A stretch of 64,000 nucleotides of DNA from a virus: IMG/VR virus record IMGVR_UViG_3300025446_000004, positions 1 to 64,000 of that record; one strand, written 5' to 3'. Positions 32,315 to 48,966 of this stretch are shown one piece after another. Within the stretch, counting starts at the first letter, position 1, and each line of letters starts with the position of its first letter. The translations under genes and the position numbers were made by a program. The notes under the pieces were generated by a model. That model was not told the DNA's origin. It saw nothing but the letters and a program-made list of their open reading frames with translations, and did no database searches.

Positions 32315-32315
32315 A

Positions 32316-32417: not shown

Positions 32418-32542
32418 GGATTTTGATGCCGAGAGACACTTAGTGTAGCGGCATCGGGAAACGTCTCTTGTTTGACTAGGGGAGACCATGGGCGACGTTT
32501 TGGAGAGAGTATCTTGGGTTTTGGCCGTCCACCAAAAGTTTT

Positions 32543-32617
32543 CGCGGGGTAGCTCAGTCCGGTAAGAGCGAAAGATTCATAATCTTTAGGCCACAGGTTC
32601 AAATCCTGTCCCCGCAA
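32543..32617 (+). tRNA. tRNA-Met(CAT), initiator-like acceptor stem
   Basis: CGCGGGG/CCCCGCA with C1xA72 mismatch, loop TTCATAA, T loop TTCAAAT; CCA not encoded. Confidence 0.9.
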
Positions 32618-32628
32618 CATTGGTTGCT

Positions 32629-33030: not shown

Positions 33031-33035
33031 TTTTT

Positions 33036-33602
33036 ATGAATCAAACTCATTTCACGGCTGATGAGCATATCGGTCACAAAAATATAATTATTTACTGCAA
33101 CCGCCCCTTTGCGGACATTCGTGAGATGCGCGATGAGATGATCCGTCGCCATAACGAAGTTGTCTCGGATGGTGATATAGTATATCATATCGGTGATATG
33201 TTTTGGCGTTTCAACAAGACAAAGGAAGTTTTAGACTACCTCTATTCACTCAACGGCACTCACCGATATGTTCTCGGGAACCATGAGGAAGCCATTCGAG
33301 ACCTTTTCAATAAATATCCAGACTGTGAATTCTTTGGTCCCCTATTTGAGCGCGTGTACTTAAATGGGGTGTCTACGGGAACGCCGGGCGGCATTGTGCT
33401 TGACCACTATGCCGGACGCGTGTGGCAGAACAGCAGTCACGGCTCGTGGCAATTATTTGGGCATAGTCACGCTGCACTACCTGACATTGGACTTTTACAA
33501 ATGGATGTAGGAGTTGACGCCCACAACTTCTATCCTGTATCATTGGATCAAGTAAAAGCGATCATGGCAAAGAAAATGGAGAGCCAGAGTGAGCGACCCT
33601 GA
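33036..33602 (+). CDS. Calcineurin-like metallophosphoesterase
   Basis: DEHIGH, HIGD, GNHE, GHSH, DVGVD motifs. Confidence 0.9.
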   Translation: MNQTHFTADEHIGHKNIIIYCNRPFADIREMRDEMIRRHNEVVSDGDIVYHIGDMFWRFNKTKEVLDYLYSLNGTHRYVLGNHEEAIRDLFNKYPDCEFFGPLFERVYLNGVSTGTPGGIVLDHYAGRVWQNSSHGSWQLFGHSHAALPDIGLLQMDVGVDAHNFYPVSLDQVKAIMAKKMESQSERP

Positions 33603-34377
33603 TAAAAATATATCCCACGTCTATGAAAAAGACGAGTCTCCTTGTGAGCACAAATGGTCGCTCTATCGCCCTAGAAACAGTGGTATTGTAAAACGCTGCC
33701 TAAAATGTGGCTACATTCTTATTGAAAAAACCCCATGTCAACATCCCAATGCTTATTATATTGGCATCGATCCAGAGGCGCAGGGGCCAACATCTGTTTA
33801 CCGGTGTGAATCATGTAGAGAAGATTTTAAAAAAGAAGGCTGTTGGCACTTACACCGCGCAATAGCACGGCGAGAGCTTGAAACCAACGCAGCAGGAGAA
33901 CAACTATATTTATATTACGAAACATGTTTGGACTGTGGTGAGCGGCTTGTCAAAGCTCCGGAGCCGTATCAAGATAGTAACTGCACCAGTTGTCACCGCA
34001 GGGGCACAGTTCTATTCCATAGATTACCTAGTGGAAAAAACATTGCTCTATGTACGATGTGCGGTAAATACACCGACTTGTCAGTAAACTCCCCGGCAGC
34101 TACCATTACCACAGCAGCCCAACAATTAAACGAACAAATGACCCGCAATCGGGCAGCTAGGGATTTACTCAGAGCCAGTTTGCCCACAGATACTTTACAA
34201 GAACAAAGAATAATGCAAGGAATTGTAAATACGCAATTAGAAGCTTTAGCTAGAAATATGACCCCCGCATTTGCACGTAGCCAACCAAAAACCACGGCTA
34301 TAGTTGTAAAAAGGGAAACCACAACTCTTGTTGTGTCTACCGACCAAAGACCGCGTAAGTTCATTTGGGACGCATAG
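33589..34377 (+). CDS. Multi-zinc-ribbon hypothetical protein
   Basis: Repeated CxH...CxxC units. Confidence 0.6.
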   Translation: MSDPDKNISHVYEKDESPCEHKWSLYRPRNSGIVKRCLKCGYILIEKTPCQHPNAYYIGIDPEAQGPTSVYRCESCREDFKKEGCWHLHRAIARRELETNAAGEQLYLYYETCLDCGERLVKAPEPYQDSNCTSCHRRGTVLFHRLPSGKNIALCTMCGKYTDLSVNSPAATITTAAQQLNEQMTRNRAARDLLRASLPTDTLQEQRIMQGIVNTQLEALARNMTPAFARSQPKTTAIVVKRETTTLVVSTDQRPRKFIWDA

Positions 34378-34385
34378 GGGGAACA

Positions 34386-34653
34386 ATGGAGTATACTCAA
34401 AAACTTGATGTACTTTGTACCGAAGTACGAAATGAAGTCACACGTGCTGTATCTCTTCATGGCGGTATGAAAAGTCAGCACGAGGCTTATGCTGTAATCC
34501 TTGAAGAACTTGATGAGTTTTGGGATTTGGTGAAAATCAACCCAAAAAAAACTTCCACCCGAGGAACAAGATAAACGGTTGGACGACATGCACGTTGAAC
34601 TCATCCAAATCGCAGCTATGGCAATCCGAACGATCTATGATCTAGCATTATAG
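34386..34653 (+). pseudogene. MazG-like all-alpha NTP pyrophosphatase, frameshifted in an A8 run
   Basis: VILEELDEFWD in one frame continues as LPPEEQ...ELIQIAAMAIR in the +1 frame after 34544-34551. Confidence 0.6.
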
Positions 34654-34661
34654 GAGGAAGC

Positions 34662-35123
34662 ATGAAATCACAAACCCTGCTGCAATCATTCGTTACATAC
34701 TGCCAAGACCATCCAGAGGAACGCTTCTGGCAAGCCTTGCGAAACTGGTCAAAGTGGAGTTTTATTGGTGTATCAAATGACTTGGTGAGTTGGCGAGATA
34801 CAATGTTTTGGGAGGGCCGATCAAGCTTTATTGAGGGGATCGGACCGGACCAGAAAATTAAAAGCCATAGGATTGACGTTCGACACGTCTGCGCTATCTG
34901 TGATAAGGTGTATGGAGAACATGAGGCATATAGCAACCGATGCACATATGGCCCAAAAAGTGCCGTGCTGAATGGAGTGAAATTTCTGGACACTGTGTTT
35001 GCTCCCAAGAAGGGGTGGGAACCACCGGCGGATGACTCTAATAAAATGTTAGTACAAGACAGGCTCCAAAGCAGACGTTATCAGGGTGACGAGCAAGAAA
35101 GTTCCGCAGAGAGGTTGAGCTAA
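34662..35123 (+). CDS. Hypothetical protein
   Basis: AGGAGG RBS; HPEERFWQALRN motif. Confidence 0.65.
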   Translation: MKSQTLLQSFVTYCQDHPEERFWQALRNWSKWSFIGVSNDLVSWRDTMFWEGRSSFIEGIGPDQKIKSHRIDVRHVCAICDKVYGEHEAYSNRCTYGPKSAVLNGVKFLDTVFAPKKGWEPPADDSNKMLVQDRLQSRRYQGDEQESSAERLS

Positions 35124-35353
35124 TGTATATATCTTGTTACCGAATTTACAAACTCCGTCCTGACATGAAACCTGTTTGCTGTGAATCGTGTCATACGGAT
35201 GATGAAGAATTTGGTTATGATTTATGTGCAGTTGACGGTCCAGATGGATCAATTGGTGAACATACTGGTGGAGTTTGTTGTAGAATGTCGATGCAACTTG
35301 ACGATAAACCCTTAACTGTTGAAGAATGGGAAAAACTGAAAACGGAGGAGTAA
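35123..35353 (+). CDS. Cys-rich hypothetical protein
   Basis: CCESCH...VCC; coupled ORF. Confidence 0.55.
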   Translation: MYISCYRIYKLRPDMKPVCCESCHTDDEEFGYDLCAVDGPDGSIGEHTGGVCCRMSMQLDDKPLTVEEWEKLKTEE

Positions 35354-35829
35354 TGGCTAAAAAGAAATCATCCAAGCGTCCTATGAAGCCATACTGGACA
35401 TTCGTGAACGACATTACATACTATCTAAAAGACCACTTCTACCTGCACTCGTGGACTCTTCATGTTCTGCAAGTAAAGAACGACAAGACTAGCCAGAACG
35501 ATACAAATGCCGAAGTGATTGCTAGCATGGGTAGTGATGATACCTATATGGACGCGACTCTTAGTTTGTATCCTCTAGCAAAAAGAATGTGGAAAGAAAG
35601 GCGATGCAATTCCCTTGGACGTGCCATTGTACATGAATTCTGTCACGTCATAACCGATCCTCTGTACAAGATTGCTTGTAACGGGATATGTCGCCGCGAA
35701 GGTCCGGGGCTGGAACATACGCGAGAGAATACGACACAACACATATGCAACATTGTCATGCCCGGCATCGACAAAAAAATCTTCTCTCCATATAAAAATA
35801 TCAGGAGTAAACGACAATGCATACATTGA
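35353..35829 (+). CDS. Zincin-like HExxH protein
   Basis: AIVHEFCHV; GGAGGAG RBS. Confidence 0.6.
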   Translation: MAKKKSSKRPMKPYWTFVNDITYYLKDHFYLHSWTLHVLQVKNDKTSQNDTNAEVIASMGSDDTYMDATLSLYPLAKRMWKERRCNSLGRAIVHEFCHVITDPLYKIACNGICRREGPGLEHTRENTTQHICNIVMPGIDKKIFSPYKNIRSKRQCIH

Positions 35830-36080
35830 CAACGGACCAGAAAATGACAATTCGTAGAAATGCACAGCGAGCCATTGACGAATGCGACTATCGGGCATTC
35901 AGAAACAGTCTGTTATCCCCAGAGCAGATTGTCGCCCTGCTGGATGAAACAGAGGCCATAAGGAATCGTCTCTCGACCATCTACCGGGAAGATTCCTATG
36001 AAGTCAGGCGACAAGCCAATCCACCTATAATGATCTCAGCCGTATCTGCTAGACGTAAGGCGATGCAATACCCATTGTAA
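35817..36080 (+). CDS. Hypothetical protein
   Basis: AGGAG RBS, 87 aa. Confidence 0.5.
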   Translation: MHTLTTDQKMTIRRNAQRAIDECDYRAFRNSLLSPEQIVALLDETEAIRNRLSTIYREDSYEVRRQANPPIMISAVSARRKAMQYPL

Positions 36081-36126
36081 TAAAAGATAAAAATATATTG
36101 GAACTAAAGGACAAGGAGGAACCACA

Positions 36127-36330
36127 ATGGTAAAGTATTCATTCAGACATACACATGGTTGGATCGTAAAAGTATTGTGGGAAGAAATCATCCAATCAAG
36201 TAACGATATATTGTTATTGAAACAAATGGCAATCGATGGCAACGACAAATTGCAAGTAGTCATCATCAACATGCAGGACCGCCGGGAGAGGATGCTAAAT
36301 CTCTACGACTTCTTTACACCAAAGGATTAG
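36127..36330 (+). CDS. Hypothetical protein
   Basis: AGGAGG RBS, 67 aa. Confidence 0.55.
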   Translation: MVKYSFRHTHGWIVKVLWEEIIQSSNDILLLKQMAIDGNDKLQVVIINMQDRRERMLNLYDFFTPKD

Positions 36331-36356
36331 TTCAAGAAGTGCCATTTGAAATAACT

Positions 36357-36395
36357 CCTGCACAATAACTCGCCCAAAGTTATCGTGCAGGTTTT
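36357..36395 (+). terminator. Rho-independent terminator
   Basis: CCTGCACAATAACT...AGTTATCGTGCAGG followed by TTTT. Confidence 0.65.
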
Positions 36396-36564
36396 GTGTA
36401 TTCACAAAATTTATATTAGAACACTTCTAATAACATTATATTGAAGTGACCCCCTTTTCCGCATATCTCCAACCGGCCCCCTGACACCCTTCCAGCCTTG
36501 ACACAAGCCCTTTATATCCCCATAGGCTTGACACTACCCCGTTAAGACCCCCTTCCTATACCAA

Positions 36565-36580
36565 TGTTCCACGTGGAACA
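36565..36580. promoter_or_regulatory. parS: parS centromere-like site
   Basis: Perfect palindrome TGTTCCACGTGGAACA matching the bacterial chromosomal ParB-binding consensus. Confidence 0.8.
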
Positions 36581-37069
36581 CAGTGTGAAACATTTGATTC
36601 CATTGGGAGCGTCTGTGTTTCATGCTGCCATGCCGGGATAGCTGCGCACGCTGTTAATTATTACAACGCGCTGGATTAGTGGGGTATCCGATTTTGGCCA
36701 CACCAGCAAAAGCTGACGAACGCATACCCCTGTGGGGTCTGGCGGCACGGTCGGCCCGGTACTTCTTAACCACCCTATAACCCCTGTAAAATCTTATACA
36801 TGCGCCATGTAAACGGTTACAATGTTTCTGGGTTGCAACCTTTTACCGTTGGAATTCTGCGGCATCCGGTTTGTAACTCGTTTGGTTTTAATGGGATGGT
36901 CGCAATGTAAACAAAATCACATAATGTTGACAAATGGTCACAGGTTATCAACTAATAAATTAGTTGATGGTTTGGAAACAAGATTGTGTGACGTGGCGCA
37001 TAGTAAACGACAGGATACGGCCCATTTAATCTTTACATCCGTTCCCCTATTGAACTCGGTCCGTTCCGG

Positions 37070-38380
37070 GGTTCGCATCCGGCCCGGTTCTATTGCGGCC
37101 CGTTGCCGGTGTTCCTATAGTTGCTTGTGTCGATGTTCCCCGGCCCGTTTGGAGTCAACATCTGGCGGCCCGGTCGCCGGTGTTCTCGGTTGTCATGCTG
37201 CTACGTTGACCGGTTTGATTAGTTTGACCAGCGTCCCATTGCCGGGGTTATATGGTCTCAAGGTTCTATGGGGGGGTCACTGTCAATTGCCCGGCTTGGA
37301 CCATTGCCGATAAAAATATAGTGGAACTCGCACAGGGCGATTTAAGCGGTTCGGATCATTGCCGGGGTAATTCCCCATACCTGTGGTTAATACGGGCGCA
37401 GAGTGGCCCGGTTCTATTGCGGCCCGGTCGCCGGTTGCATGGCGGCCCGGTTGCTATGCTGGCATTGACCGGCAGCCCCTTGGTTCGGGGTTACTAGGGT
37501 TCTATGGTTAAGGTATAAGGTCGAAGTCAATTGCTCGGCTCGGCCCGATCCGTTGCCGATAAAAATATATTGAAACTAACGCAACGTGATTTTACCGGCG
37601 GCCCGGTTCCACGGTTGACCAATTGACCGATTGACCGGCGGCCCATATCAGGCGGCCCGGTTGCCGGATCATTGCCGGATTACTGCGGCCCGTTACGCTC
37701 GCGGTTGTCGGTTTAATCTGGCGGCCCATTGCCGGGGTTGTTAGGTATAAGGGAACGTGAGCTAAACGGGCCGGGCCGGATCATTCCCGATAACTTTATA
37801 TCGTAACTCACTGCAAGGCGATTTAAACGACCTGTACCGTTGCCGGGGATCATTCCATACTGGCGGCCCATTGAACGCATGGCGGCCCGGTTCTGATCAC
37901 TGGCGGCCCGTTGTAATTGGCGGCCCGGTTCCTGGGTTGCGTTATCGGTTGCTGATCATTTGGAGCAACCGGCGGCCCGTGGTTCTAATATTTTTTTCGT
38001 GGAATTCAACCGCTAGCACGTACAATGCCAAACGGCCCAATGTACTGTGAAAATTCCGAACGAAAGTAATACCGCTAAAATATGGCTCGGCGGCCCGGTT
38101 CGCATTGTAATGTTATAAATAAATCGCTTTACTTGCGGTTTTGTAAACGATTACATTTCAGCCAATTAGTAAAGCGATTTACTAGCGGCTCTGTATGTCC
38201 TTGATTCTATTAACTAAATCGCTTTACAATCGCTTGCAAGCTAAATCAATTTACCTTGCCCGGTGTTGATCCGATTTTGAAAAATGAGGTGACCGGTCAA
38301 CTCACGGCCCGGCGGCCCGTCTAGCGCGAAATACAGTTTCCCATATCAGGCGAATATTAAGAGAATATTTGCGGCCCACA
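37070..38380 (+). repeat. Left non-coding repeat block (GGCGGCCC-rich; degenerate ~240-bp units; GTAAA-N4-TTTAC boxes)
   Basis: 13 GGCGGCCC copies by manual count, all on the + strand. Confidence 0.9.
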
Positions 38381-38487
38381 GTTGGCCTGCGACTCGTATT
38401 TTGCTATTACTTTAGTTTTCTTCAATTCTTTTATTGTGTTGTAATTTTGTTCGAGCTAGCCGCATAATCAAGGGGAAAGGGGAAAAA

Positions 38488-38685
38488 ATGGAAACATACT
38501 TCATTGTCATGGCCCTGTTAGCAACCGTGGTTCTAATGTTGGCCGGTCTTGTATGGCTCAATCATTGTCACCATAAAGCAACCATGATCTGTTTACTCAT
38601 GCTCGTGTGTTGCTTTTTTCCGCCATTCCTTATCGTGGCTATTTTGATCGTGATGTGCGGTCAAGGAAAGGGGGAACCCCAATGA
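38488..38685 (+). CDS. Small membrane protein
   Basis: Two hydrophobic segments; purine-rich RBS. Confidence 0.55.
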   Translation: METYFIVMALLATVVLMLAGLVWLNHCHHKATMICLLMLVCCFFPPFLIVAILIVMCGQGKGEPQ

Positions 38686-38972
38686 TGTACAAAGTGAACC
38701 TCAAGGGTTACAACGGCAACCGCAATAAATCAGTTCTGGTGTTAGCTCCCGATAAAAATGCAGCGATTAGCATCGCCTTACACGAGTCTGGTTTTTTCAG
38801 TGTCGAATCCGTTCAACCGGAACCGGTCGAATTTGGTTTTGACTATAAGCATCAAGCTTGGGTCCGAAACAACCGATACGTTGGATGCGGCCACACGAAC
38901 CGGCCCACGTGCGGTTGCTTTGGCTCACTTCATGCCGGGGAACCGGTTCGGGCCGATGCGGAGTTTAAGTAA
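38682..38972 (+). CDS. Hypothetical protein
   Basis: MMYKVNLK start overlapping the previous stop; CGH...CGC...H metal-binding pattern. Confidence 0.6.
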   Translation: MMYKVNLKGYNGNRNKSVLVLAPDKNAAISIALHESGFFSVESVQPEPVEFGFDYKHQAWVRNNRYVGCGHTNRPTCGCFGSLHAGEPVRADAEFK

Positions 38973-39283
38973 AAATATATGGAAACTGCATTGCACCTTG
39001 ACAGAATACCGGCAAACGTTTGGCGCGAGTACGTGCAAGCGATACAGCGCACCGGGTTAACTCATCCGCTCAATGTCGCACTTGACCGGTTGCAGTTTTT
39101 ATTTTCACTTTCCCCGGTTGACGTGGAAAAATATTTTCAAGAGAGGAGGAGCGCATGATCCAAATGGTAGAAAGCTTTTTCCTGCTTTACACCGCGGCAG
39201 TGAGCGTGGTGTTGATCCTTGGCGCAATAGCTGTCAAGAACTCGGACCGATAACGCAACACTAACCAGAAAGGAAAAACTCGA

Positions 39284-39529
39284 ATGTTTAATCTTTACAA
39301 ATTCGTGTTTGTTTCAAAATCGCATGACGGAAAAAGGGCCGAAATACGGCGAGTAAACAAGTACACCGGCGCAACGAAAACTTTCCACGGTGTGAAATGC
39401 GGAGACGGGTTCCAAATCATTACCGGTTCGCGTGGTTTTTTTGACAACGGAAAAACGGTAACACTTCCGGTTTACACCTTGCTTAAGGCGAGCGAAATTG
39501 AATCGTCCCCGGCAACCGAAACGTTGTAA
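39284..39529 (+). CDS. Hypothetical protein
   Basis: AAAGGA RBS, 81 aa. Confidence 0.55.
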   Translation: MFNLYKFVFVSKSHDGKRAEIRRVNKYTGATKTFHGVKCGDGFQIITGSRGFFDNGKTVTLPVYTLLKASEIESSPATETL

Positions 39530-39724
39530 TAACATTTTCAAGAAAGTGTATCAAAGCAATGCAAAGTTTAGTTATTGGACGTGCCAGCGATTGTGACTGT
39601 AACTTGTGCCGTGGGTATGGCTGGCACATTTTCGCACCTTGGACAGTCCGAATGTGGCATAAGGTTTCCCGATTTTTCATTGAGAGTTATCAACAACATT
39701 TCAACCAGAAACGAGGATGAAAAA

Positions 39725-39940
39725 ATGATTGTCACGGAAACAATATCCTATAGGGTCTCAGGTATAGGGAAAACGTGGGAGGGGTTTAACATCACTTTTT
39801 CTCGTGAGTTTGACTATTTTCCGAGTTTGGATAATGTTCTCAAAACAACCGGAGACTTTGAGACAATTGATCATATTAAGGTGCATTGCGTGCACACTGT
39901 AACGTGTGAAGAAACCACTAAGTGTGCATTGGCTTTGTAA
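39725..39940 (+). CDS. Hypothetical protein
   Basis: MIVTETISY start after GAGGA. Confidence 0.5.
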   Translation: MIVTETISYRVSGIGKTWEGFNITFSREFDYFPSLDNVLKTTGDFETIDHIKVHCVHTVTCEETTKCALAL

Positions 39941-39977
39941 ATATTATGAATTCAACCCGAAACGAGGATTTTGACCT

Positions 39978-41528
39978 ATGGATTTTGTAACGCAATACCG
40001 GGCGGCCCGGCGAGTATCAACACCGCTGCTAGTCGTCCGCACATTTGACAGTAATTCAACCATCCGAACGATACGCGCAACTATCGGGGAAAAAATTGAG
40101 GATGTTGCGCTTATTCGTTGGGATATTTGCCACGGTTGCGAACCATTAACCAAACGGGCCGGGATCGAATTAAACGAAATGCTAGCGGGGGAAGAACCCG
40201 ATATTACCCTGTCACTAGAAAACACTTTGAGGCTAGCAGAAAAACAGGCACACTCTGACCAGTCAACCATGGTCACATTGTTTATTTGTAACGCTCATTT
40301 GTTCTGGCGTGATAATCCGCAAGTGATTCAAGGAATTTGGAATTTGCGCGATCTTTACAAGTCAAACGCTAACATGCTGGTGTTACTTACTTCCCCCGGT
40401 CAAACGGTACCGGCAGAATTGTCGAACGATGTTCTTGTGTTAGATGAACCGCTCCCCACACGTTCCGAACTCGGAAAAATCATTACTGATACTTTCCACT
40501 TTGCAAAATGGACTGCCCCAACTGGTGACCCACTAGAGCGGGCAGTTGATGCATTAGTGGGAGTGCCGGCTTTCGCAGCAGAGCAAAGTACCGCGATGAG
40601 TCTTGAAAGCAAAACTCAAGATTTAAATCTAAGCTCACTGTGGCAACACAAGCGAACTATTATTGCTCAGACTCCGGGGTTATCGTTATTTGACGGCGAC
40701 GATACGCTTGACAACATCGGAGGATTGGACAGTATCAAGTCATTCATTAGTTGTTTAATGAATGGGAAGCTTCCCCCGGCAGTGATCCTGTTTTCAGATG
40801 AAATTGAAAAAGGGTATGCCGGTACCGGAACCGATTTGAGCGGCACTAAAACGGAATTGACCGGCGGCACACTCACATGGACTGAGGAAAAAGGAATTGA
40901 CGGTATCCTATTACTTGGAGTACCCGGTGTGGGAAAATCGGCAATTATTAAGGCCATGGGTGGAACGTACAATCGGCCCGTTATCGGGTTCGATGTTGGA
41001 GCAATGCAGGGTTCGCTCGTGGGTCAATCAGGCGCAAACTTCCGCACTGCTACAAAAACGGTTGACGCAATTTCGGACGGAAAAATCCTGTGGGTCGCAA
41101 CATGTAACAGTGTTAATGCACTGCCTCCGGAGTTACGCTCACGATTCAAATTAGGCACTTTCTTTTTTGATGTTCCAACTGAAACGGAACGGGCCGCGAT
41201 TTGGAACATATACCGGGCAAAGTATGAAATACCGACGAATGATCCTACTCCGGATTGTACGGGGTGGACAGGCCGCGAAATTCGAGAGTGTGCATATAAG
41301 GCATACAGGTTTGGTATCACACTCAAGGAGGCGGCCCGGTACGTTGTTCCGGTAACCATTTCGAGTAAAGAACAAATTCAAGGCTTGAGGCTAGCAAGCT
41401 CTGGGAAGTATCTTTCGGCTAGTTACCCCGGTCTGTTCAATTGCCGGGGAGAGTTACCAGCAGCGAACATTGCAACCGTACCGGTTCTCCGTGCGGCCCG
41501 GTCACTCCAATTTGATGAGGAAAGGTAA
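39978..41528 (+). CDS. Ycf46-like AAA+ ATPase with rearranged motif order
   Basis: Degenerate N-terminal AAA domain; IGGLDSIK; VILFSDEIEK precedes GVPGVGKS; then VATCN..LPPEL.RF..FFFDVP. Confidence 0.85.
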   Translation: MDFVTQYRAARRVSTPLLVVRTFDSNSTIRTIRATIGEKIEDVALIRWDICHGCEPLTKRAGIELNEMLAGEEPDITLSLENTLRLAEKQAHSDQSTMVTLFICNAHLFWRDNPQVIQGIWNLRDLYKSNANMLVLLTSPGQTVPAELSNDVLVLDEPLPTRSELGKIITDTFHFAKWTAPTGDPLERAVDALVGVPAFAAEQSTAMSLESKTQDLNLSSLWQHKRTIIAQTPGLSLFDGDDTLDNIGGLDSIKSFISCLMNGKLPPAVILFSDEIEKGYAGTGTDLSGTKTELTGGTLTWTEEKGIDGILLLGVPGVGKSAIIKAMGGTYNRPVIGFDVGAMQGSLVGQSGANFRTATKTVDAISDGKILWVATCNSVNALPPELRSRFKLGTFFFDVPTETERAAIWNIYRAKYEIPTNDPTPDCTGWTGREIRECAYKAYRFGITLKEAARYVVPVTISSKEQIQGLRLASSGKYLSASYPGLFNCRGELPAANIATVPVLRAARSLQFDEER

Positions 41529-41532
41529 ACCG

Positions 41533-41916
41533 ATGAGTGCATATTCTGAATTCCCAATGTCCGAGTTTAAAGACTGTAACCTCTTGATCGAGGCAATGGA
41601 AAAAATGGGATACAGTCAAATCAGCCTCGACAAAACGAACTATGAATTGAGGCCAATGCAACCCGATTTAGTGTTTCGTAAAAATGGCGCATACGCTAGC
41701 ACGTGGAACGATGTAGGCTTCAAGCGTACCCCGAACGGCACTTATAGTGCTATGTTCTCGGATTACGCAACCGGCAATACTCAAACATGGGTGCAAAAAC
41801 TCAAAGGCGAGTACATCGAATGCGGTGTGATTCTCCAAGCCAAGAAAATGGGATTGCGGCCTGTGGGTCGCACTGAGAAAAATGGTAAGGTAACGCTCGT
41901 TTATCAGCGTGCATAA
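41533..41916 (+). CDS. DUF1257/Ycf35-like protein
   Basis: MSAYS...FKD..LLIEAMEKMGY...DVGFKR..NGTY; position next to a Ycf46-like ATPase. Confidence 0.75.
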   Translation: MSAYSEFPMSEFKDCNLLIEAMEKMGYSQISLDKTNYELRPMQPDLVFRKNGAYASTWNDVGFKRTPNGTYSAMFSDYATGNTQTWVQKLKGEYIECGVILQAKKMGLRPVGRTEKNGKVTLVYQRA

Positions 41917-41951
41917 CGCAAGCGCAACCGAAAGGAAAAGGTAAAAATATC

Positions 41952-42149
41952 ATGGCGAAAACGAAACTTGTAACCATTACGATTGACAAAGAAGCCGGCG
42001 GAGGATTCACATGCGATACAACCGGTTTCGAGGGCAAAGGGTGTGCCGATATTCACAGGATGTTTGAGTCTATTGGCGGCCCCGGCAAAACGGATCATAA
42101 GCCAGAGTGGAACCAAATACAACGGTTGAACGTTACGGCGGGGAGGTAA
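41952..42149 (+). CDS. DUF2997-like protein
   Basis: VTITIDK..G...DTTGFEGKGC...E..G.....KPEW, 65 aa. Confidence 0.75.
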   Translation: MAKTKLVTITIDKEAGGGFTCDTTGFEGKGCADIHRMFESIGGPGKTDHKPEWNQIQRLNVTAGR

Positions 42150-42152
42150 TCT

Positions 42153-42791
42153 ATGTTAGTTCATGCACGTATCGATAGCTCACAAGTCAATGGGCCGGGG
42201 AACCGGGCAGTGCTATGGTTTCAAGGTTGTTCCCTTAACTGCCTCGGATGTTGGAATGAGGGCACTCACCCATTTGATTTTGCTTATCACGTAGAATGGG
42301 GAACCATTCAAACATGGTTGATGAATTTACCGGCAGATGTAACAGGGTTGACCCTATCAGGGGGAGAGCCATTGCAGCACTCGTTTGACGTGCTAGCAAT
42401 AGCCGATTTTTTGAGCCTAGTACGGCCCGGTTTTTCCATTGGCTTATTCACGGGGTACACTCTGCCAGAGTTACGGGCCGGTCGATTCCAAACTATCGAC
42501 CAAACCGGAACCCGTTTGATACTCGGGGAACCGGAATTATGGGCCGCGATTGAAAACAGAATCGATTTTGCAGTAATGGGCCGGTTTAATCCGGGATTAG
42601 TAACCATTAAAAAACCGTTATGCGGTTCCGATAACCAAAGGGTTGTTCTATTCTCGAACCGCCATAAGCTTGCGGATTTTGACGGGCAAGCTTGCGAGAT
42701 TACAATTGGGGAACATGAGGGCCAGATGTGCGCAACTATGACGGGGTTCCCCGGTTCTGAATTCATTACCAGCATCAAAACTGCCCTATAA
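42153..42791 (+). CDS. Radical SAM protein, NrdG/activase-like
   Basis: VNGPGNRAVLWFQGCSLNCLGCWN (CX3CX2C), SGGEP, TGY, GSDNQR. Confidence 0.85.
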   Translation: MLVHARIDSSQVNGPGNRAVLWFQGCSLNCLGCWNEGTHPFDFAYHVEWGTIQTWLMNLPADVTGLTLSGGEPLQHSFDVLAIADFLSLVRPGFSIGLFTGYTLPELRAGRFQTIDQTGTRLILGEPELWAAIENRIDFAVMGRFNPGLVTIKKPLCGSDNQRVVLFSNRHKLADFDGQACEITIGEHEGQMCATMTGFPGSEFITSIKTAL

Positions 42792-42818
42792 CGGGGTAAC
42801 GAAAAGGAAGGTTAGAAC

Positions 42819-43748
42819 ATGGCTGAAAGCAACATTCAGACAATAACATTCAACGATGTAAGCGGGTTATCATCTCAAGTGATGTTTTTACAATTGCGGG
42901 CCGGTTTACTCGGGAACTCTCGAAAAATGGGAGGCGATATTTTCAACACTCCGGGAACCGATGTTGCATGGTTATCCGCAAACAAAAAACTCCTTGAGTC
43001 ACCGCAATTGGACGCGATACGCAAAGCAGACATGCGCATACGTCAGTGGTTATATAACTCAAAGGGACCAGCGTTACCTTGCAGCTTTGATGCGTTTACA
43101 ATTCCTAATGGTTCCGTTGTTTCAGTACGGAACAAGCTTGAGGAATTTAAAACGGAACGGGCCGGGTTGGTTGATGAATTCATGGCGGTGTACGTGGAAC
43201 AATCAAGGGAAGCAAGGGAAAAACTCGGCCCGCAATGGAATCCACACGAGTACTTGACCCCCGAACGTGTTCGAGCGAAATTTTACTTTGAGTATTCCTT
43301 TTATGGTTTCGGAGTCTCCGAAACACTTAAAGAAATTTCGCAAGAACTCTACGATGAACAAAAAAACAAAATCGAATCGGATTTTCGCAATGCAGCGGAC
43401 GAGATCACCGCAGTGATGCGGGAAACTGCTTTCGGGTTACTGCAAAACTTGCAAGAACAATTGACCCCGGACGATACCACGGGCAAAGCTAAAAAACTTC
43501 ATCCGGCGGCCCTTGCGAACGTTAAAAACTTTCTTGAAAGTTTCAGCATCAAGAATGTTACAAATGACAATGAACTCTCAAACATTCTCGCGCAAGTGAA
43601 AACACTGGTGACCGGGGTCGATACAAAAACCATTAAGGCCAGCGAGTCATTTAAAACAAACATGCGCGATAAACTCGCAGAGATTACCGGGAAACTTTCG
43701 ACCATGGTCGAGGAAAAATCGGGCCGCAAGTTTCTATTCGATGAGTGA
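42819..43748 (+). CDS. DUF3150-like helical protein
   Basis: 309 aa; ANKKLL...F...Y.....EAREKLG..W....Y...E.VR.KF.F pattern recalled from this MGE family. Confidence 0.55.
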   Translation: MAESNIQTITFNDVSGLSSQVMFLQLRAGLLGNSRKMGGDIFNTPGTDVAWLSANKKLLESPQLDAIRKADMRIRQWLYNSKGPALPCSFDAFTIPNGSVVSVRNKLEEFKTERAGLVDEFMAVYVEQSREAREKLGPQWNPHEYLTPERVRAKFYFEYSFYGFGVSETLKEISQELYDEQKNKIESDFRNAADEITAVMRETAFGLLQNLQEQLTPDDTTGKAKKLHPAALANVKNFLESFSIKNVTNDNELSNILAQVKTLVTGVDTKTIKASESFKTNMRDKLAEITGKLSTMVEEKSGRKFLFDE

Positions 43749-43814
43749 CAGAACCGGGCCGGGCAACCGGCCCACGGTTCCTTAACACGTTTTTTCAAGA
43801 AAGGAAAAAACCAA

Positions 43815-44480
43815 ATGATTGGAATTACGAAAACTGAACTACAAACCCTGTTTGATGCGATCAAAATTCAAGACAAATTTGACCGCAAAGAGTTTGTGCA
43901 TCTTCTTGTATTGTGCCGTTTGGCGATGCGAACCGGAACAGAAAAGCAATTGTTCGCAGCAGTCGAAGACGTAAACTGGGAACTCGGAATCGAGCAATCG
44001 GAACCGGCGCCCCCGGAACATGATCCACTCGAAAACATGATCGGGAATACGTTACGTGACTATCGGGCCGCCGGTTTACCTAATCCGGTTGAGCCAAGAA
44101 TCCACGAGGTAACCCCGGCAGTACCGGACCCAGCTCCGGAACCTGTGCCAGCTTCGGAACCCGATCTCAATCCCGCAATCACGGAAGCTTTGAACAGTAT
44201 GCGGGGAGAGTCGATCACCCTAGCAGATGGTATCGCCGTTTCGTTTCTTGGAACCGGCCCGATTCCTCTTGGGGTTGCATTGGACGTGGAACCGCGCATT
44301 GAACAATCGGCAAACTATCCTCGCATTATGCGCCGTTTACAAATCGCGCAAGAATTACTCTCAGGTTACTGTCACCAGTACCGCGAAACCGGAACTTTTA
44401 CTCCGGAATATGTCGGGCAAACGTTCCGGGAAAAATGTATTGCAATTCTGCGTTATGTAGTCAACTTGCTAAAAAACTAG
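43815..44480 (+). CDS. Hypothetical protein
   Basis: 221 aa; AAAGGA RBS; Pro/Glu linker. Confidence 0.65.
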   Translation: MIGITKTELQTLFDAIKIQDKFDRKEFVHLLVLCRLAMRTGTEKQLFAAVEDVNWELGIEQSEPAPPEHDPLENMIGNTLRDYRAAGLPNPVEPRIHEVTPAVPDPAPEPVPASEPDLNPAITEALNSMRGESITLADGIAVSFLGTGPIPLGVALDVEPRIEQSANYPRIMRRLQIAQELLSGYCHQYRETGTFTPEYVGQTFREKCIAILRYVVNLLKN

Positions 44481-44489
44481 CCTCGCATT

Positions 44490-45290
44490 TGACCTATAAC
44501 GGGCCGATGTGAATACTCCGGGCCAGTACCATGGCAGAAATGCCGGATACTGGCCCGGTTCTTTTTTGACGGCTCCGGCCCGGCCCGGCGGCCCGTTCCC
44601 ATATAAAAATATATTGAACTTCGACGGCCCGGTAAACGGATCATATGGTCCGGAACCATAGAACCGGCCCTGTAAACTACGGCCCGGCGGCCCACGGTTG
44701 ACTTGTATGGCTCATATACAGTTTTCGTGACCCTATACCCTCAAAAAAATATTTATAAGGTAAACCGATTTACTTTCAAGTTTGAAAAACATTTTACCAC
44801 GGTCAAAGTAAATCGCTTTACCTATAATTTTATATAAGGGTACGGTACCATCCCCCGGCGGCCCGGCGGCCCATGGGGGAACACTGGCGGCCCATGGCGG
44901 CCCGATCTCGTGAGTGACCGGCAACCCCGGCGGCCCGGTACCGGCGGCCCACGTGGCAACCGGCGGCCCGGCGGCCCGGTTCTACAGGCGGCCCCGGTAC
45001 CCTGGTTCTAATATATCTATTGAAATAGTAACATTTTGGTTACACGTTACTAGAGTAATACACCCTACCAATTACATATTACTAAAGTAACTGTATACAA
45101 TTGGCAACAGTAACGTTACCTTAGTCATCATAGTAACGTTACCAAAGTAACAACCGCTCCGGGCGGCCCTTTGGTGGGGTTCGATCTCTTCTAGCAGGAA
45201 AAATCCGAGCAAAATCACTTAGGTACTTGATGATTCCGGTCGTCTCTTCTAGTAATAAAACTTTCGCGGAATTCTCTTAGGTACTTAGGT
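44490..45290 (+). repeat. Right non-coding repeat block (GGCGGCCC-rich; GTAAA-N4-TTTAC and GTTAC-N4-GTAAC boxes; ~58-bp-period direct repeat)
   Basis: 12 GGCGGCCC copies by manual count, all on the + strand. Confidence 0.9.
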
Positions 45291-45322
45291 AATTTGATTT
45301 TACAAGGTGTTGCTTTTTTAGC

Positions 45323-45351
45323 TTGACGTGTTTTTAGGGGCATGATACTTT
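45323..45351 (+). promoter_or_regulatory. Sigma70-type promoter
   Basis: TTGACG-17-TACTTT with TG extension. Confidence 0.55.
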
Positions 45352-45398
45352 AGGCTTGACCCGCAGAGTGGAAACATGAAACGGGATTATTAAATGGG

Positions 45399-45608
45399 AT
45401 GGTCACCATGCCAGAACCAATCAAAAATGAACTCTCGCAAGTCATGGCCGCTATGCGGGCGCGGATTGATTCAACTGACAAGATAGCGCGTGTTACCCGG
45501 CGACCAAAGCCAAGATGCAAGCATCCTCATATAAATTTAGCGCATCGTTACCGCACAGCAGCACAACTGGCGCGTAAGGCAACGAAACCCAACGGGGCGC
45601 CAGTATGA
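45399..45608 (+). CDS. Hypothetical protein
   Basis: First ORF after the promoter. Confidence 0.5.
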   Translation: MVTMPEPIKNELSQVMAAMRARIDSTDKIARVTRRPKPRCKHPHINLAHRYRTAAQLARKATKPNGAPV

Positions 45609-45823
45609 CACAAGAGGAATACGAACGTAAGCGGTACTTTGTCCGCCTTGTTTTTCCAGTATTCAAAATGGAATTCCGATTCAAAGGATGCACTCATTGG
45701 TGGACAGAGTATTTTGATTCTAGCCAATATTGCAATAAATCGGGAAGCTTCAGGGCAGCATTATCACCGTTTTGTGAAATGAGGGAGTTGCAGCCCATAC
45801 TTGAGGAAGGCGGCCAGAAATGA
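45605..45823 (+). CDS. Hypothetical protein
   Basis: ATGA-coupled ORF. Confidence 0.5.
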   Translation: MTQEEYERKRYFVRLVFPVFKMEFRFKGCTHWWTEYFDSSQYCNKSGSFRAALSPFCEMRELQPILEEGGQK

Positions 45824-45915
45824 CACGCTGGAATTGTTATATATTTTTACTGAATGTGTGGTCGTTCATCATAAACTACGCGGCCTACATTCCGCTATTT
45901 TTTTAAGGAGACAAC

Positions 45916-46374
45916 ATGGCCTACAGTCCGTGTCCGAAGTGCCAAACGAAAGAAGAGTTTGATAACTTTTTTGCCACAATGCCCGAGGCGGAAGCAATCG
46001 AGTCCGCTGGATTCGCAGTCATGGAACCGGGATTCCGGTTGAAATGCAATCGAAATCCTGACCATCATTGGGAAACCTCAGAGGGCCTACACAGAGACCT
46101 TGCAGCAGCCGGGCATACAGGCCGCCGGGCGTTGAACGTTATGGAACTACCGGGGACAGCACCCAAGCGTAAACCAGTGCGCTATGAGCGAGGGCCGATT
46201 GGACTCTTGTTCGATATATTGTTTCCAGAATCCGAGGGCTTTCGGTGTAAACTTTTACCGGAAGCCAAGCACTGCCTCCATCGGGCGATGTGCCACTTGC
46301 GCGGTGATTTAAAAAATACATATCCGTCTACCAAGGATGGTGTTCCGGTACCCGGAGTCGTTTGGAACGATTAG
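45916..46374 (+). CDS. Hypothetical protein
   Basis: AAGGAG RBS; CPKC...C...H. Confidence 0.6.
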   Translation: MAYSPCPKCQTKEEFDNFFATMPEAEAIESAGFAVMEPGFRLKCNRNPDHHWETSEGLHRDLAAAGHTGRRALNVMELPGTAPKRKPVRYERGPIGLLFDILFPESEGFRCKLLPEAKHCLHRAMCHLRGDLKNTYPSTKDGVPVPGVVWND

Positions 46375-46407
46375 TTACTTTGGTGACGAGACGTTTTGTT
46401 TTGGTAC

Positions 46408-46435
46408 TTGACAGGTTTAGGTGCAGTGTTACACT
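46408..46435 (+). promoter_or_regulatory. Sigma70-type promoter
   Basis: TTGACA-16-TACACT with TG extension. Confidence 0.6.
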
Positions 46436-46444
46436 AAGGGTGCA

Positions 46445-46900
46445 ATGAAAAATACAACACAAACCGAGTCTTTGGCGTTTCCAAGTGAGCATTGGGCGGT
46501 GTTTAATCTCCATGTTAACAATGCCGGGAAGCGTGCGATTCGAGTGACCGAACGGGAATTTGGAGCAACGAACAAAAAATATATAAAGCTCAAGAACTTG
46601 TTTGAGTTGCACGAAATCATGGCGATCTTTGGGGAGAAGCCCAACCGAGTGACCAAGTTTTTCGCCCATATGGTATATATATTTGCCAATGGGTTTGATG
46701 TGGCTCCGCGCAACACCACCGGACCAACCGACGATGGTATCGTCTATGCGGAAGGCAAGCTCCCAGACAATCGTTTGGTAACATTTTTTTTAAACCGCGA
46801 CACTGGACTTGTAACGGTGGAACTTACAACCAACAAGGGCAATGGCGTGACAACTTTATTGAAAAAGCAGGTTTACAATGGCCGCCAAAAAGCAAGTTGA
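46445..46900 (+). CDS. Hypothetical protein (C-terminus paralogous to the next gene)
   Basis: KLPDNRLVTFFLNRDTGLVTVEL. Confidence 0.65.
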   Translation: MKNTTQTESLAFPSEHWAVFNLHVNNAGKRAIRVTEREFGATNKKYIKLKNLFELHEIMAIFGEKPNRVTKFFAHMVYIFANGFDVAPRNTTGPTDDGIVYAEGKLPDNRLVTFFLNRDTGLVTVELTTNKGNGVTTLLKKQVYNGRQKAS

Positions 46901-47168
46901 GCCGACCCATCTTGGGCCAATAGTCCAATCAGTGACCACTAAGGGCGGTTCAGTAATGTTCAACGAGGCTCACGGCGTGTGGGCATCCTACGCAGTAGCC
47001 GGATGTGGCGATGAGGAACCCCGATTGGAACTGTTCTATGCTGGTATAAAGTTACCAGATGGGCGCAATGTTTTACTGTTTGTCAATCGGGAGAATGGTC
47101 TTGTAGTTGTCGATGTAGTAAATAAAGATCAGCACGGCGGAATCGAAATTTTCCGAAAGAAGGTGTAA
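46878..47168 (+). CDS. Hypothetical protein
   Basis: KLPDGRNVLLFVNRENGLVVVDV. Confidence 0.65.
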   Translation: MAAKKQVEPTHLGPIVQSVTTKGGSVMFNEAHGVWASYAVAGCGDEEPRLELFYAGIKLPDGRNVLLFVNRENGLVVVDVVNKDQHGGIEIFRKKV

Positions 47169-47300
47169 TGTGAAATCAGTCACGACAGGCGGCAAGTCGC
47201 TCAAACGCAACGTGAAGAATCCAAAGGCACACGAAGTGTGGATACAGCGCAAGCGCGAACGCAACGCGCAGAAGGTGAATCCACAGAAGAAGGGGTAACC

Positions 47301-47744
47301 ATGACACCGGTTAATTCAAAGCGATGTAAGATCAAGCGCATGGTTCATAATACCGTGCCTTTAATCAATCACCCGATACGTGAGGGATTTTGTGTGGTTG
47401 ATGGGAAAAAAATATATCCGAACATCAAGGCCGGATGGAGCGCAATAAACTATATCAGGGCGAACGGCAATGATACGCGGCCCCGTAATGATATGCGTCC
47501 ATACCTCAGTGAATCGTGCGGACATATTCACATCGGGCACTACAAGTCTCAGCAGCAAGAGGTAACACCGAGCACCGGGGTTGAGCACGGTGCTCCGAGC
47601 ACGGTGCTCAGTGGACCGAACTACACCGAGCACGGGCCGAGCACCAAGGCACCGGTTAATGCGCGGGGGTTCCAGCATCGGGGGCGCACGATCCGACGCA
47701 AGACGGAACCACCCGCGCACGTGAGTCAAGAAAGGATAAACTAA
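47301..47744 (+). CDS. Hypothetical protein containing a GAGCAC repeat array
   Basis: GKKIY...MRPY...CGHIHIGH motif; start uncertain. Confidence 0.5.
   Translation: MTPVNSKRCKIKRMVHNTVPLINHPIREGFCVVDGKKIYPNIKAGWSAINYIRANGNDTRPRNDMRPYLSESCGHIHIGHYKSQQQEVTPSTGVEHGAPSTVLSGPNYTEHGPSTKAPVNARGFQHRGRTIRRKTEPPAHVSQERIN
47568..47646. repeat. GAGCAC/GTGCTC array
   Basis: 5 GAGCAC and 2 GTGCTC, including tandem GAGCACGGTGCTC palindromes. Confidence 0.85.
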
Positions 47745-47900
47745 TATATGGCCGTTTGCACTATAAAGTTATCCGGGCGGCGATGTCCAAGACCACAGTA
47801 GGGTAACATAATAGGAGGCCATTGCTTATAAAGGGGCGTGCCGGGCCAAAACAAGTTGGTACTCTATATCTTTTTATCAAACTTGAAAGGAGAAAAGAAC

Positions 47901-48089
47901 GTGGGCAAAGCAAACGTGATCCTAGTGAAAGAGTTTTTGAATCTCAACACAAACTGACCAGTACCACTCACCGAAATGAACGAGTTCTGGAAATCATGTT
48001 CCATGGAGGAACGCGAACAGTACGCGGCGGAGGTTCGCAAACTGGTTCCGGAACTTGACGGCGCAACGACTGCGGCTGTACCGGCATAA
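47901..48089 (+). pseudogene. Small protein with in-frame TGA
   Basis: AAAGGAG RBS, GTG start, MGKANVILVKEFLNLNTN*PVPLTEMNEFWKSCSMEEREQY... Confidence 0.5.
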
Positions 48090-48167
48090 CTCCGTTGTCA
48101 CACTGCGCTATTAAATATGCAGTGTGACTCCGGTTTGTTGTAAATTCAACACTGAAAGGAGCATGAA

Positions 48168-48908
48168 ATGTGCAATTTCGCATCATCCGTTATCACCGCT
48201 GACAGAGAATTTTTTCTGCCTACTGAGGATTCTCACAGTACTATTATTCGCCATTTCGGCCTACACGAATGGGGAACTCATGACCCAAACATCGTGAAGG
48301 TTGAAATTACTCCCAATAAAAATATGACCGTGTTCCCAAGTTTGGACACATGGACATATCGTGTGGATCAGGATAAGTTTCCTGAATGGCATACTGCCAA
48401 TCCAGCGGACACTGAGAGACGCGCAAGAGCGGCACTTAAGCTGCGTGCCAAACGTGGATTCAAGGTTGTCGAGTTGAATGGAACTGACAAACTTGTATCG
48501 CTTACTCTTCCAAAAAGAATCGCACGGTTAAACGTTAACGGGGCGCGGCTCCTCAAGAGTGTTGTAGCTCCGGGTGCCAAACAGGTGTCCCTCTACGGCG
48601 TGCCGAATCTGGAAAAACTTACCGTACCAAATGCCACAAAGTATGTGAGTATCGTAAGTTCGAAAAAGTTAACCAAACTGGCACTCCCTAAAGCCGATAC
48701 TGTCGAAGCCAGAGGTAACCCTAACCTACAGTATTTGTCTGCTGCGGTTGCCAACTGTGTTGATGCCCGAAACAATAAAAATCTCGCCAAAATCTATGCG
48801 CCAAAGGCAACGCGAGTGTATGTGACTGGTTGCCTGAAGAACGTCAAGATCAAGGCGAAAAAGGGCGCGTCCATTTATCGTGGGACTGGCACCGCATATG
48901 CCAAGTAA
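48168..48908 (+). CDS. LRR-like beta-solenoid repeat protein
   Basis: Repeats of LxxLxxPxAxxVxxxG; N-terminal domain shared with 50941..51417. Confidence 0.75.
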   Translation: MCNFASSVITADREFFLPTEDSHSTIIRHFGLHEWGTHDPNIVKVEITPNKNMTVFPSLDTWTYRVDQDKFPEWHTANPADTERRARAALKLRAKRGFKVVELNGTDKLVSLTLPKRIARLNVNGARLLKSVVAPGAKQVSLYGVPNLEKLTVPNATKYVSIVSSKKLTKLALPKADTVEARGNPNLQYLSAAVANCVDARNNKNLAKIYAPKATRVYVTGCLKNVKIKAKKGASIYRGTGTAYAK

Positions 48909-48966
48909 CCCCAACCCGTATATTTATATACGGAACTCCCGAGAGGGAGATTTTGGAGAAAAATAC

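Follow-up and report, generated by a model that had tools for sequence, protein, structure and literature searches.

A recurrent five-gene AAA+, DUF1257, DUF2997, radical SAM and DUF3150 cassette between two non-coding blocks in a distant relative of phage Tunturi_3

Introduction

Neighboring genes for an AAA+ ATPase, a DUF1257 protein and a DUF2997 protein form a set that is widespread from plastids to phages and lacks a known function; for its cyanobacterial form, the Ycf46/Ycf35/DUF2997 set, we likewise know of no function. In cyanobacteria, DUF2997 and ycf35 are located beside the ferredoxin gene fed7, according to the available part of the source (PMC4284462). The present analysis concerns an extended and very common five-gene form of this set, in which genes for a radical S-adenosylmethionine (SAM) enzyme and a DUF3150-like protein are added. 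It is carried by a 64,000-nt stretch of viral DNA, hereafter the window, which is the start of the 89,756-bp IMG/VR virus record IMGVR_UViG_3300025446_000004.

Two described phages are relevant to this locus. Tunturi_3 is a 97.6-kb podovirus from tundra soil with an Acidobacteriota host (PMC11924767, as excerpted), and phi29 has five host-type parS sites that are used via host Spo0J (PMC2731898, as excerpted). Judged from its head protein and gene order, the phage studied here is a distant relative of Tunturi_3, a Tunturi_3-like podovirus of Acidobacteriota. The explanation we favor, with about even confidence, is that the locus is an insulated operon with two control regions, that its five-gene protein machine would aid DNA establishment, and that arrays of the short repeat GGCGGCCC together with a parS site would set the domain apart.

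The cassette in related phages and Acidobacteriota elements

The five genes lie on the + strand and encode a p97/VAT-like AAA+ ATPase of 516 amino acids (aa) (39978..41528); a DUF1257-like protein of 127 aa counted from ATG (41533..41916), whose open reading frame (ORF) is open from TTG at 41470; a DUF2997-like protein of 65 aa (41952..42149) with the family invariants G25, G28, C31 and E52; an activase-type radical SAM enzyme of 212 aa (42153..42791) with CX3CX2C, GGE and a C-terminal extension of about 45 aa; and a DUF3150-like protein of 309 aa ending ..GRKFLFDE (42819..43748). Relatives were gathered as a viral set of 80 IMG/VR loci found by the ATPase profile (213 IMG/VR stretches were confirmed) and a genome set made of the best 80 of 386 confirmed stretches from species-representative genomes. 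The genome loci belong nearly all to metagenome-assembled genomes (MAGs) of Acidobacteriota, in some cases on contigs of 0.8-3.65 Mb, and the cassette may be present several times in one genome.

Tunturi_3 has, in this order, DNA polymerase, phosphoesterase, a 1.66-kb non-coding block, gp103 (AAA), gp102 (DUF1257), gp101 (DUF2997), four small genes and gp96, which is DUF3150-like with 33% identity. In most of the 80 IMG/VR loci the DUF3150-like gene is close to or after the AAA gene, and the radical SAM gene is present in five, four of them with the gene order and slot seen here. In the 80 genome loci, the radical SAM gene was found in 69, DUF3150 in 68 and DUF1257 in 60, in one of two orders, AAA-1257-2997-rSAM-3150 or 1257-(2997)-rSAM-AAA-...-3150. 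ORFs of DUF2997 size form clusters in 119 of 161 loci; single-linkage clustering of all ORFs merged overlapping or shadow ORFs into giant clusters, and only small clean clusters were used. What lies between DUF2997 and DUF3150 varies: this slot is filled by the four small genes in Tunturi_3 and by a 108-aa ORF in 38 viral loci. The database label of gp96, 'HNH endonuclease', looks doubtful for a DUF3150-like homologue (L001:2608-3312 to 12696-13655).

In annotated MAG loci the neighbors are a Gp3-like RDF (directionality factor), an AEP-TOTE primase, SSB, Prok-E2_D, ThiF, PRTRC_E, a SNF2 helicase and a DUF6094 methyltransferase, and because of these genes the loci are taken to be PRTRC-type mobile elements. 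The AAA and DUF3150-like genes are syntenic in the same arm of Tunturi_3, gp102 and gp101 are DUF1257 and DUF2997, the arrangement recurs in most IMG/VR loci, and the cassette genes do not differ from the genome in G+C content, which is raised by the arrays only. The initial annotation had called the locus an island and possibly a captured element, and this description has to be given up. Comparison of these genomes shows AAA, DUF1257, DUF2997 and DUF3150 as syntenic core genes of the phage lineage, four of the five cassette genes being vertically conserved. The five-gene cassette itself is real and recurrent, and undescribed so far as the literature searched goes; among the matches listed for DUF1257 and DUF2997, none concerns a phage module.

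Flanking repeats were scored as an 8-mer occurring at least three times on each side of the cassette, in the 69 viral loci with both flanks and in 57 MAG loci. They were found in 11 of the 69 viral loci, several of the words resembling ribosome-binding sites or being AT-rich, and in 0 of the 57 MAG loci. The notion of a repeat-bracketed cassette, for which the initial annotation had itself named this comparison as a check, is thereby contradicted (58 of 69 viral and 57 of 57 MAG loci lack flanking repeats), and since homologous cassettes mostly lack them, the repeats are no part of the cassette.

Proteins of the module and their C-terminal tails

The ATPase matches PF00004 with 35.7 bits (cut-off 21.2), over model positions 1-57 of 131 only, and contains the Walker A sequence GVPGVGKS; across 30 relatives, G314, P316, G317 and K320 never vary. 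An acidic DEIEK motif with invariant D274 and E275 precedes Walker A (G314-K320; window 40690-41220). The best PDB matches of the ATPase profile are VAT and p97 (E 2e-18 to 1e-16), covering Walker A and beta2 only (query 303-356); sensor-1 and the lid gave separate matches. The family is large: 1302 proteins were found at E <=1e-10 among 8000 scored candidates.

The DUF1257, DUF2997 and DUF3150 assignments, which fall below cut-off in this phage, are supported through homologues. For DUF1257 (PF06868), Tunturi_3 gp102 scores 32.3 bits and L338C_052 36.8 bits, and BLASTP links the phage protein to gp102 at E 4e-07. For DUF2997 (PF11211), gp101 scores 29.1 bits and is matched by the phage protein at E 3e-05 in BLASTP, while the motifs GxxGxGC and K[PR]E[YF] are common to 29 relatives. 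For DUF3150 (PF11348), E <=0.001 was reached by 25 of 65 aligned relatives (best 4e-08), and the Atlas returned DUF3150 clusters for the phage protein (feature score 0.98, TM 0.86); the DUF3150 profile found nothing below E 0.2 in the PDB.

Two of the families have similar ends. A strict tail was defined as a basic-hydrophobic-acidic pattern, [GS]-R-[KR]-hydrophobic-x-hydrophobic-acidic, at the C-terminus, and it occurs in 81 of the 131 distinct DUF3150-like sequences and, among ATPases, in 51 of 152 distinct ones, compared with 0 of 72 radical SAM, 0 of 73 DUF1257 and 0 of 37 DUF2997 proteins. The tail ..GRKFLFDE of the phage DUF3150-like protein fits this pattern.

The orphan radical SAM enzyme

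The radical SAM enzyme matches Fer4_12 with 81.1 bits (cut-off 22), and its cluster cysteines C26, C30 and C33 (CX3CX2C) are invariant in 42 relatives. Against the NrdG model TIGR02491 it scores 72.9 bits, below the NCBIfam equivalog cut-off of 126.1, and the other activase models also stay below their cut-offs. The NrdG match stops at residue 165 of 212, and the extension beyond it carries a family-wide TGFP. Its sole PDB relative is PFL activase (3c8f, 8fo0). On these profile scores, the enzyme is activase-like but not NrdG.

The initial annotation had noted an NrdG-like enzyme without a glycyl-radical partner in the window, and this observation extends to the whole 89.8-kb genome, in which NrdD (PF13597) gave 0 matches and no Gly_radical domain was found. 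Among five MAGs carrying the module, whose completeness is not established, NrdD was found in none and a Gly_radical domain was missing from three. Since the phage lacks both NrdD and a glycyl-radical domain, the enzyme probably has a non-classical substrate.

A simpler account is that the enzyme is an ordinary auxiliary NrdG that boosts the host anaerobic ribonucleotide reductase in anoxic peat and fell into a variable slot by chance. Its best family matches are indeed NrdG models, its phage matches are annotated NrdG, the habitat is peat or wetland, and the DUF2997-DUF3150 slot does vary. We regard this account as very unlikely, given a score under the NrdG cut-off and a family-specific C-terminal extension, a gene linked to the cassette in 69 of 80 MAG loci and in two gene orders, and the lack of NrdD both in the phage and in all five such MAGs. 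A second short radical SAM ORF of 185 aa is located at 52906-53463 (+), with 38.4 bits to PF04055 and weak MoaA- or viperin-type matches.

The operon and its left control region

The cassette is part of an operon of 11 co-oriented + strand ORFs at about 38.44-44.57 kb. Five small ORFs of 65, 97, 59, 81 and 71 aa without family assignment come first (38488..39940, +); four of the five have no relative in 160 loci at E 1e-6, and at E 1e-3 p59 matches L007 and p71 matches L008. The last gene (43815..44480, +) encodes the ORFan p221 of 221 aa, known only in this phage; its one homologue is an 89% variant, and its Atlas model was poor (pLDDT 0.50) and gave no usable match. A terminator-like hairpin with a T run (44542..44572, +) follows the last gene, a hairpin with a 15-bp stem and a T run (36357..36391) terminates the upstream replication-arm operon, and a candidate sigma-70-like promoter, TTGTAA-18-CATAAT, which is a consensus match only, precedes the operon (38439..38468, +). 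With terminators on both sides and a promoter-like site of its own, the unit is read as an insulated operon.

The left non-coding block of 2.16 kb (36331..38487, +) contains no ORF with relatives. Besides the terminator it holds a single-copy 16-bp parS palindrome of host type, TGTTCCACGTGGAACA (36565..36580), a conserved palindrome ATCAACTAATAAATTAGTTGAT (36947..36968) with related copies in the loci L013, L023, L007 and L010, and an operator-like cluster of GTAAA-N4-TTTAC palindromes (38117..38260), one copy of which, at 38169, is perfect. The latter palindrome is also found upstream of the AAA gene in L012, L013, L019 and L023, and GTAAA-N4-TTTAC palindromes were the only nucleotide matches of the blocks in relatives. 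Positionally equivalent left blocks with common elements exist in Tunturi_3, L006, L012, L013 and L023, all five in the order terminator, C-rich tract, G+C-rich hairpin followed by GGGTTGGTT and TTCTAAA words, and GTATGTTATTGA word. Going by these shared elements, the left block combines a control region conserved in the lineage with a phage-specific GGCGGCCC array.

The initial annotation had placed a parS at the left edge of the locus, and the site proved genuine and of host type. An Acidobacteriaceae MAG has the identical sequence at two sites separated by 87 bp (G004:C32:57683 and 57770), and 1.3 kb downstream of this pair lies the gene with that genome's best ParB_N match (103.8 bits). 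Among related phages, L016 has a perfect parS, L013 has one with 1 mismatch at the same place at the block start, and L057 has TGTTTCACGTGAAACA. No ParB_N protein is encoded by the phage, and we infer that host ParB would bind the phage parS. The term 'host ParB' is absent among the matches listed for the literature on parS and phages.

Nine sigma-70-like promoters of the form CTTGACA-N17-TAtagT are located in the + strand arm (27603-67590), at 27603, 31183, 31260, 46407, 50504, 53746, 57622, 64576 and 67590; none of the CTTGACA type with a good -10 box is found within 36.3-45.3 kb.

The polar arrays and the right block

The repeat GGCGGCCC has 32 matches in the window against 1.57 expected, the largest count in 100 shuffles being 5. 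In the whole 89,756-bp genome 29 copies are on the + strand and 3 on the - strand, and all 29 + copies are confined to 37164-45162, about 9% of the genome; the left block has 13 of them and the right block 12, while 4 are within genes (40001, 41330, 42075, 43505). The extended core of the repeat is CYGGCGGCCCRKT, and the spacing is irregular, 8-277 nt. The left array (37164..38318, +) has its 13 copies all on the + strand and includes sub-repeats of about 247 bp with a GATAAAAATATA..GGAACT element (37312, 37561). The right non-coding block (44481..45340, +) has its 12 copies at 44587-45169, together with GTAAA-N4-TTTAC at 44760 and 44808, GGTTCTAATAT at 45004 and AGTAAC/GTAACGTTAC repeats at 45030-45145.

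Other motifs are common to both blocks. Genome-wide, TAAAAATATATTGAA is limited to 37560 and 44604, GGTTCTAATAT to 37981 and 45004, and GTAAA-N4-TTTAC to 38169, 44760 and 44808; GTGACCGG occurs at 38289 and 44914, with 2 more + copies and 2 - copies. The two blocks have 51 10-mers in common in direct and 23 in inverted orientation; dinucleotide shuffles averaged 2.8 and did not exceed 12. This bears out the observation of the initial annotation that a gene block sits between two non-coding blocks with common motifs in the same orientation. Because motif order differs, the right block does not repeat the left collinearly; the ORFs within the two blocks are all without relatives in the 160 related loci.

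Tunturi_3 has neither GGCGGCCC arrays nor a right block, and by this comparison the arrays and the right block are private to the phage. The closest full relative, L006, has a polar motif of its own, the hairpin-forming GGGCCGG-N7-CCGGCCC, of which 14 copies on one strand are scattered between the genes of an equivalent 8.8-kb domain. The arrays here are not hairpins. Candidate roles for them are a binding array for a private ORFan (p221, p65, p97 or p81) or an iteron-like maintenance region.

The latter idea can be put more fully: the arrays would be iteron clusters of a bipartite replication or maintenance region, and host ParB with an Xer-like recombinase would support a plasmid-like carrier state. 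P4 ori/crr and the P1 and F iterons on both sides of rep would be analogues. One short direct repeat clustered at two places several kb apart (13 and 12 copies in the same orientation) would fit, as would the host-type parS, the short Xer-like tyrosine recombinase at 51429-51992 that is conserved in Tunturi_3, and private ORFans that could be the binder; moreover, phi29 is a precedent for a lytic phage using host ParB (PMC2731898, in its excerpted part). However, family searches of the operon recognized no initiator- or Rep-like family between the arrays, GC skew shows no switch at 36-45 kb, the irregular spacing differs from that of classical iterons, and Tunturi_3 and most relatives must replicate without the arrays. 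On balance the iteron account seems unlikely. The recombinase in question (51429-51992, +) is 187 aa long, consists of the catalytic domain only (PF00589, 82 bits) and corresponds to Tunturi_3 gp84.

Several other candidates for the arrays were rejected. A Chi- or KOPS-like host word was sought in five Acidobacteriota MAGs, in which the 12-mer CCGGCGGCCCGG occurs 11-21 times per 6.7-9.3 Mb and the reversed control 3-16 times; as CCGGCGGCCCGG is not over-represented, the idea is rejected for those five MAGs, which are perhaps not the host's. No Rfam family was found in the blocks beyond one chance-level miRNA match (E 0.12). Three close GGCGGCCC copies were found in at least 120 unrelated IMG/VR contigs, an uninformative result; many matches are of 32 nt, which fits a 12-nt period, and these are assumed, unchecked, to be coding repeats. 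Tandem Repeats Finder (TRF) arrays near the cassette in relatives mostly have periods of 12, 15, 18 or 63 nt and are no counterparts of these non-coding arrays; translated in frame, the consensus units of these TRF arrays resemble coding repeats for pentapeptides or hexapeptides (ORFs unconfirmed).

Long tandem repeats with a 15-nt period also adjoin the module in L016:11640-11971, L027:12120-12431, L037:19554-20043 and L038:14512-14710, and in frame they give pentapeptide repeats (ORFs unconfirmed). An element of about 20 nt, GATAAAAATATAtTGgAACT, occurs on the + strand at 36089, 37312, 37561, 38971 and 44605, and one of these copies precedes the ATG at 36127 by 38 nt. The element is possibly a promoter element specific to the phage.

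The phage, its assembly and its termini

The genes for the major head protein, portal and large terminase are on the - strand at 1-27 kb, and those for DNA polymerase (28173-30854), exonuclease and RNA ligase are on the + strand. Tunturi_3 (Tunturiibacter phage, PP885686) is the sole cultured relative: the major capsid/head proteins are 85% identical and gene order is collinear, nucleotide identity being low, and megablast of the stretch against cultured phages gave no match. The large terminase at 19475-22438 (-) has 987 aa compared with 686 aa in Tunturi_3; residues 248-372, in the extra part, match a PHROG annotated NrdD (8e-7), and the extra part is probably an intein or homing-endonuclease insert. 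In addition, ARAGORN calls a 95-nt 'tRNA-Leu(taa)' at 50593-50687 (window 50536-50914), with TAAAAATATAT at 50688.

The layout recurs in independent material. In total, 24 metagenome runs from 23 studies, peat or wetland, contain the stretch with at least 60% of sampled words each (11 of the 24 are flagged as possible sources). Runs X1 and X2 each have one contig across 32000-50000 with at most 1 difference, and run X13 (2025) has 26 of 29 pieces across the region at >=99% likeness. An assembly artefact, either mis-joined repeats or a chimeric insertion, might be suspected from run X3, whose contigs break within the right block and of which one contig jumps 95 bp of 44587-44683. That break, however, lies between two copies of GGCCCGGCGGCCC, as expected of a strain variant, and the contig lacking 95 bp shows that array length varies between strains. 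Because contigs of independent runs span the layout, it is not an assembly chimera; the chimeric junctions considered in the initial annotation are excluded by single contigs of two runs across 32-50 kb, and an artefact of any kind is hardly credible.

The initial annotation had further proposed a terminal-repeat or first-injected segment. In this explanation the 8.7 kb would be a long direct terminal repeat or a T5-like first-step-transfer segment, the blocks being stop or terminus signals and the operon pre-early. The strictly polar arrays within about 9% of the genome would suit it, and so would the L006 polar motif, likewise confined to an equivalent 8.8-kb domain, the C-rich repeat tract that opens the left block in all relatives examined, and an operon without the good CTTGACA-type promoter that its neighbors have. 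Furthermore, the record is classed 'linear' (CheckV completeness estimate 95%) and has no end repeats, so that its physical termini are not fixed. Packaging type is not inferable either, because no further cultured relative was found for the Tunturi_3 large terminase. The depths count weakly against a repeat collapsed from two copies: contig depth in X13 is 7.07, 4.71 and 6.24 inside the block and 8.08, 6.83, 5.23, 7.59 and 7.12 outside, and in X3 18.2 (contig 32000-44573) and 16.9 (contig 44722-50000), these being Logan contig depths, not reads, and a weak measure of coverage. In addition, contigs of two runs pass straight through both blocks, the right block is missing from Tunturi_3, flanking repeats are missing from 58 of 69 viral cassettes, and the phage is related to a podovirus and is not T5-like (PMC11924767, within the part available). 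A terminal-repeat or first-step segment is thus decidedly unlikely.

Proposed function and significance

In the favored explanation of an insulated operon with two control regions, the module would be a protein machine. The radical SAM enzyme would act on a module or host protein and not on ribonucleotide reductase, the ATPase would unfold or remodel its target, and the DUF1257 and DUF2997 proteins would be adaptors or substrate, while DUF3150 and the ATPase might be recruited via their similar basic-hydrophobic-acidic C-terminal tails. Because the module is common to phages and integrative elements, its most likely role would be to aid establishment of incoming DNA, through host takeover or counter-defence. 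The polar arrays would bind a phage-specific factor, and together with parS-loaded host ParB they would set the operon apart as a regulated domain.

Several points weigh against this explanation. The phage proteins themselves score below the family cut-offs, with 17.6 bits for DUF1257 (cut-off 22.2), 12.8 bits for DUF2997 (24.1) and 17.2 bits for DUF3150 (24.9). The phage ATPase tail, ..ARSLQFDEER, is a loose fit that fails the strict pattern, to which about one third of ATPases conform. Tunturi_3 and 75 of 80 related viral loci lack the radical SAM gene, so that the phage module either works without it or has it as an accessory. Two of the five MAGs carry a PFL-type glycyl-radical enzyme elsewhere in the genome, and MAG binning of short contigs is error-prone. 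No factor was found to bind GGCGGCCC, RNA folding of the array units does not stand out (z -1.6, -1.6, -2.7), and the 'early' timing of the operon would follow from its position alone.

A bolder version, which we consider a long shot, is that a radical-SAM-armed unfoldase machine of mobile DNA disarms a host function at entry of the phage or element. The orphan activase-type enzyme would put a radical or covalent change on a small module protein, with the invariant GxGC loop of DUF2997 as candidate site; the permuted p97-like ATPase, docked by the shared C-terminal tails, would use or recycle the modified protein; and the operon here would also be a ParB-loaded domain with polar arrays at its borders.

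An activase-type radical SAM enzyme without a glycyl-radical partner points to undescribed chemistry, and since the cultured Tunturi_3, growing on Tunturiibacter, has four of the five genes, the module is open to experiment. The host-type parS ties an uncultured peat phage to Acidobacteriaceae, and would be a second case, after phi29, of a lytic-type phage with host ParB sites.

Comparison with known systems

T5 resembles this locus in a first-step region that likewise would take up about 9% of the genome, with repeat-rich non-coding borders and genes of no assigned function; in contrast, the present phage is a podovirus relative, its contig depths give no sign of a terminal repeat, and its bracketing repeats are not kept in relatives. 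Closer to it, phi29 is a lytic podovirus with sites for host chromosomal ParB/Spo0J (PMC2731898, in the excerpts available), but it has five sites with a role in spore entrapment, whereas one site is found here, in a phage of a non-sporulating phylum. PRTRC elements, with their ParB-related and ThiF-related cassette, are connected through the annotated MAG loci, in which the five-gene cassette adjoins Prok-E2_D, ThiF, PRTRC_E, SSB and primase; the module proteins, the only ones searched, match no PRTRC model, and the link is one of neighborhood in host elements only.

At the protein level, p97/Cdc48/VAT gave the best PDB matches to the phage ATPase profile, yet the phage ATPase has a single AAA domain in place of two, and its N-terminal region (phrog_8638) is unrelated. 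The radical SAM enzyme resembles the NrdG and PflA activases in CX3CX2C, GGE, small size and best profile matches, and differs from them in falling below every equivalog cut-off and in its 45-aa C-terminal extension with the conserved TGFP.

The closest likeness in gene arrangement is to the Ycf46/Ycf35/DUF2997 set, in which an AAA+ ATPase gene likewise adjoins DUF1257 and DUF2997 genes; fed7 adjoins them in cyanobacteria, in the available text of the source (PMC4284462), and an Fe-S radical SAM enzyme follows DUF2997 in the phage. Compared with the cyanobacterial and plastid set, the form described here is carried by phage and Acidobacteriota mobile elements, its ATPase has the acidic DEIEK before Walker A, and it is extended by an activase-type radical SAM enzyme and a DUF3150-like protein.

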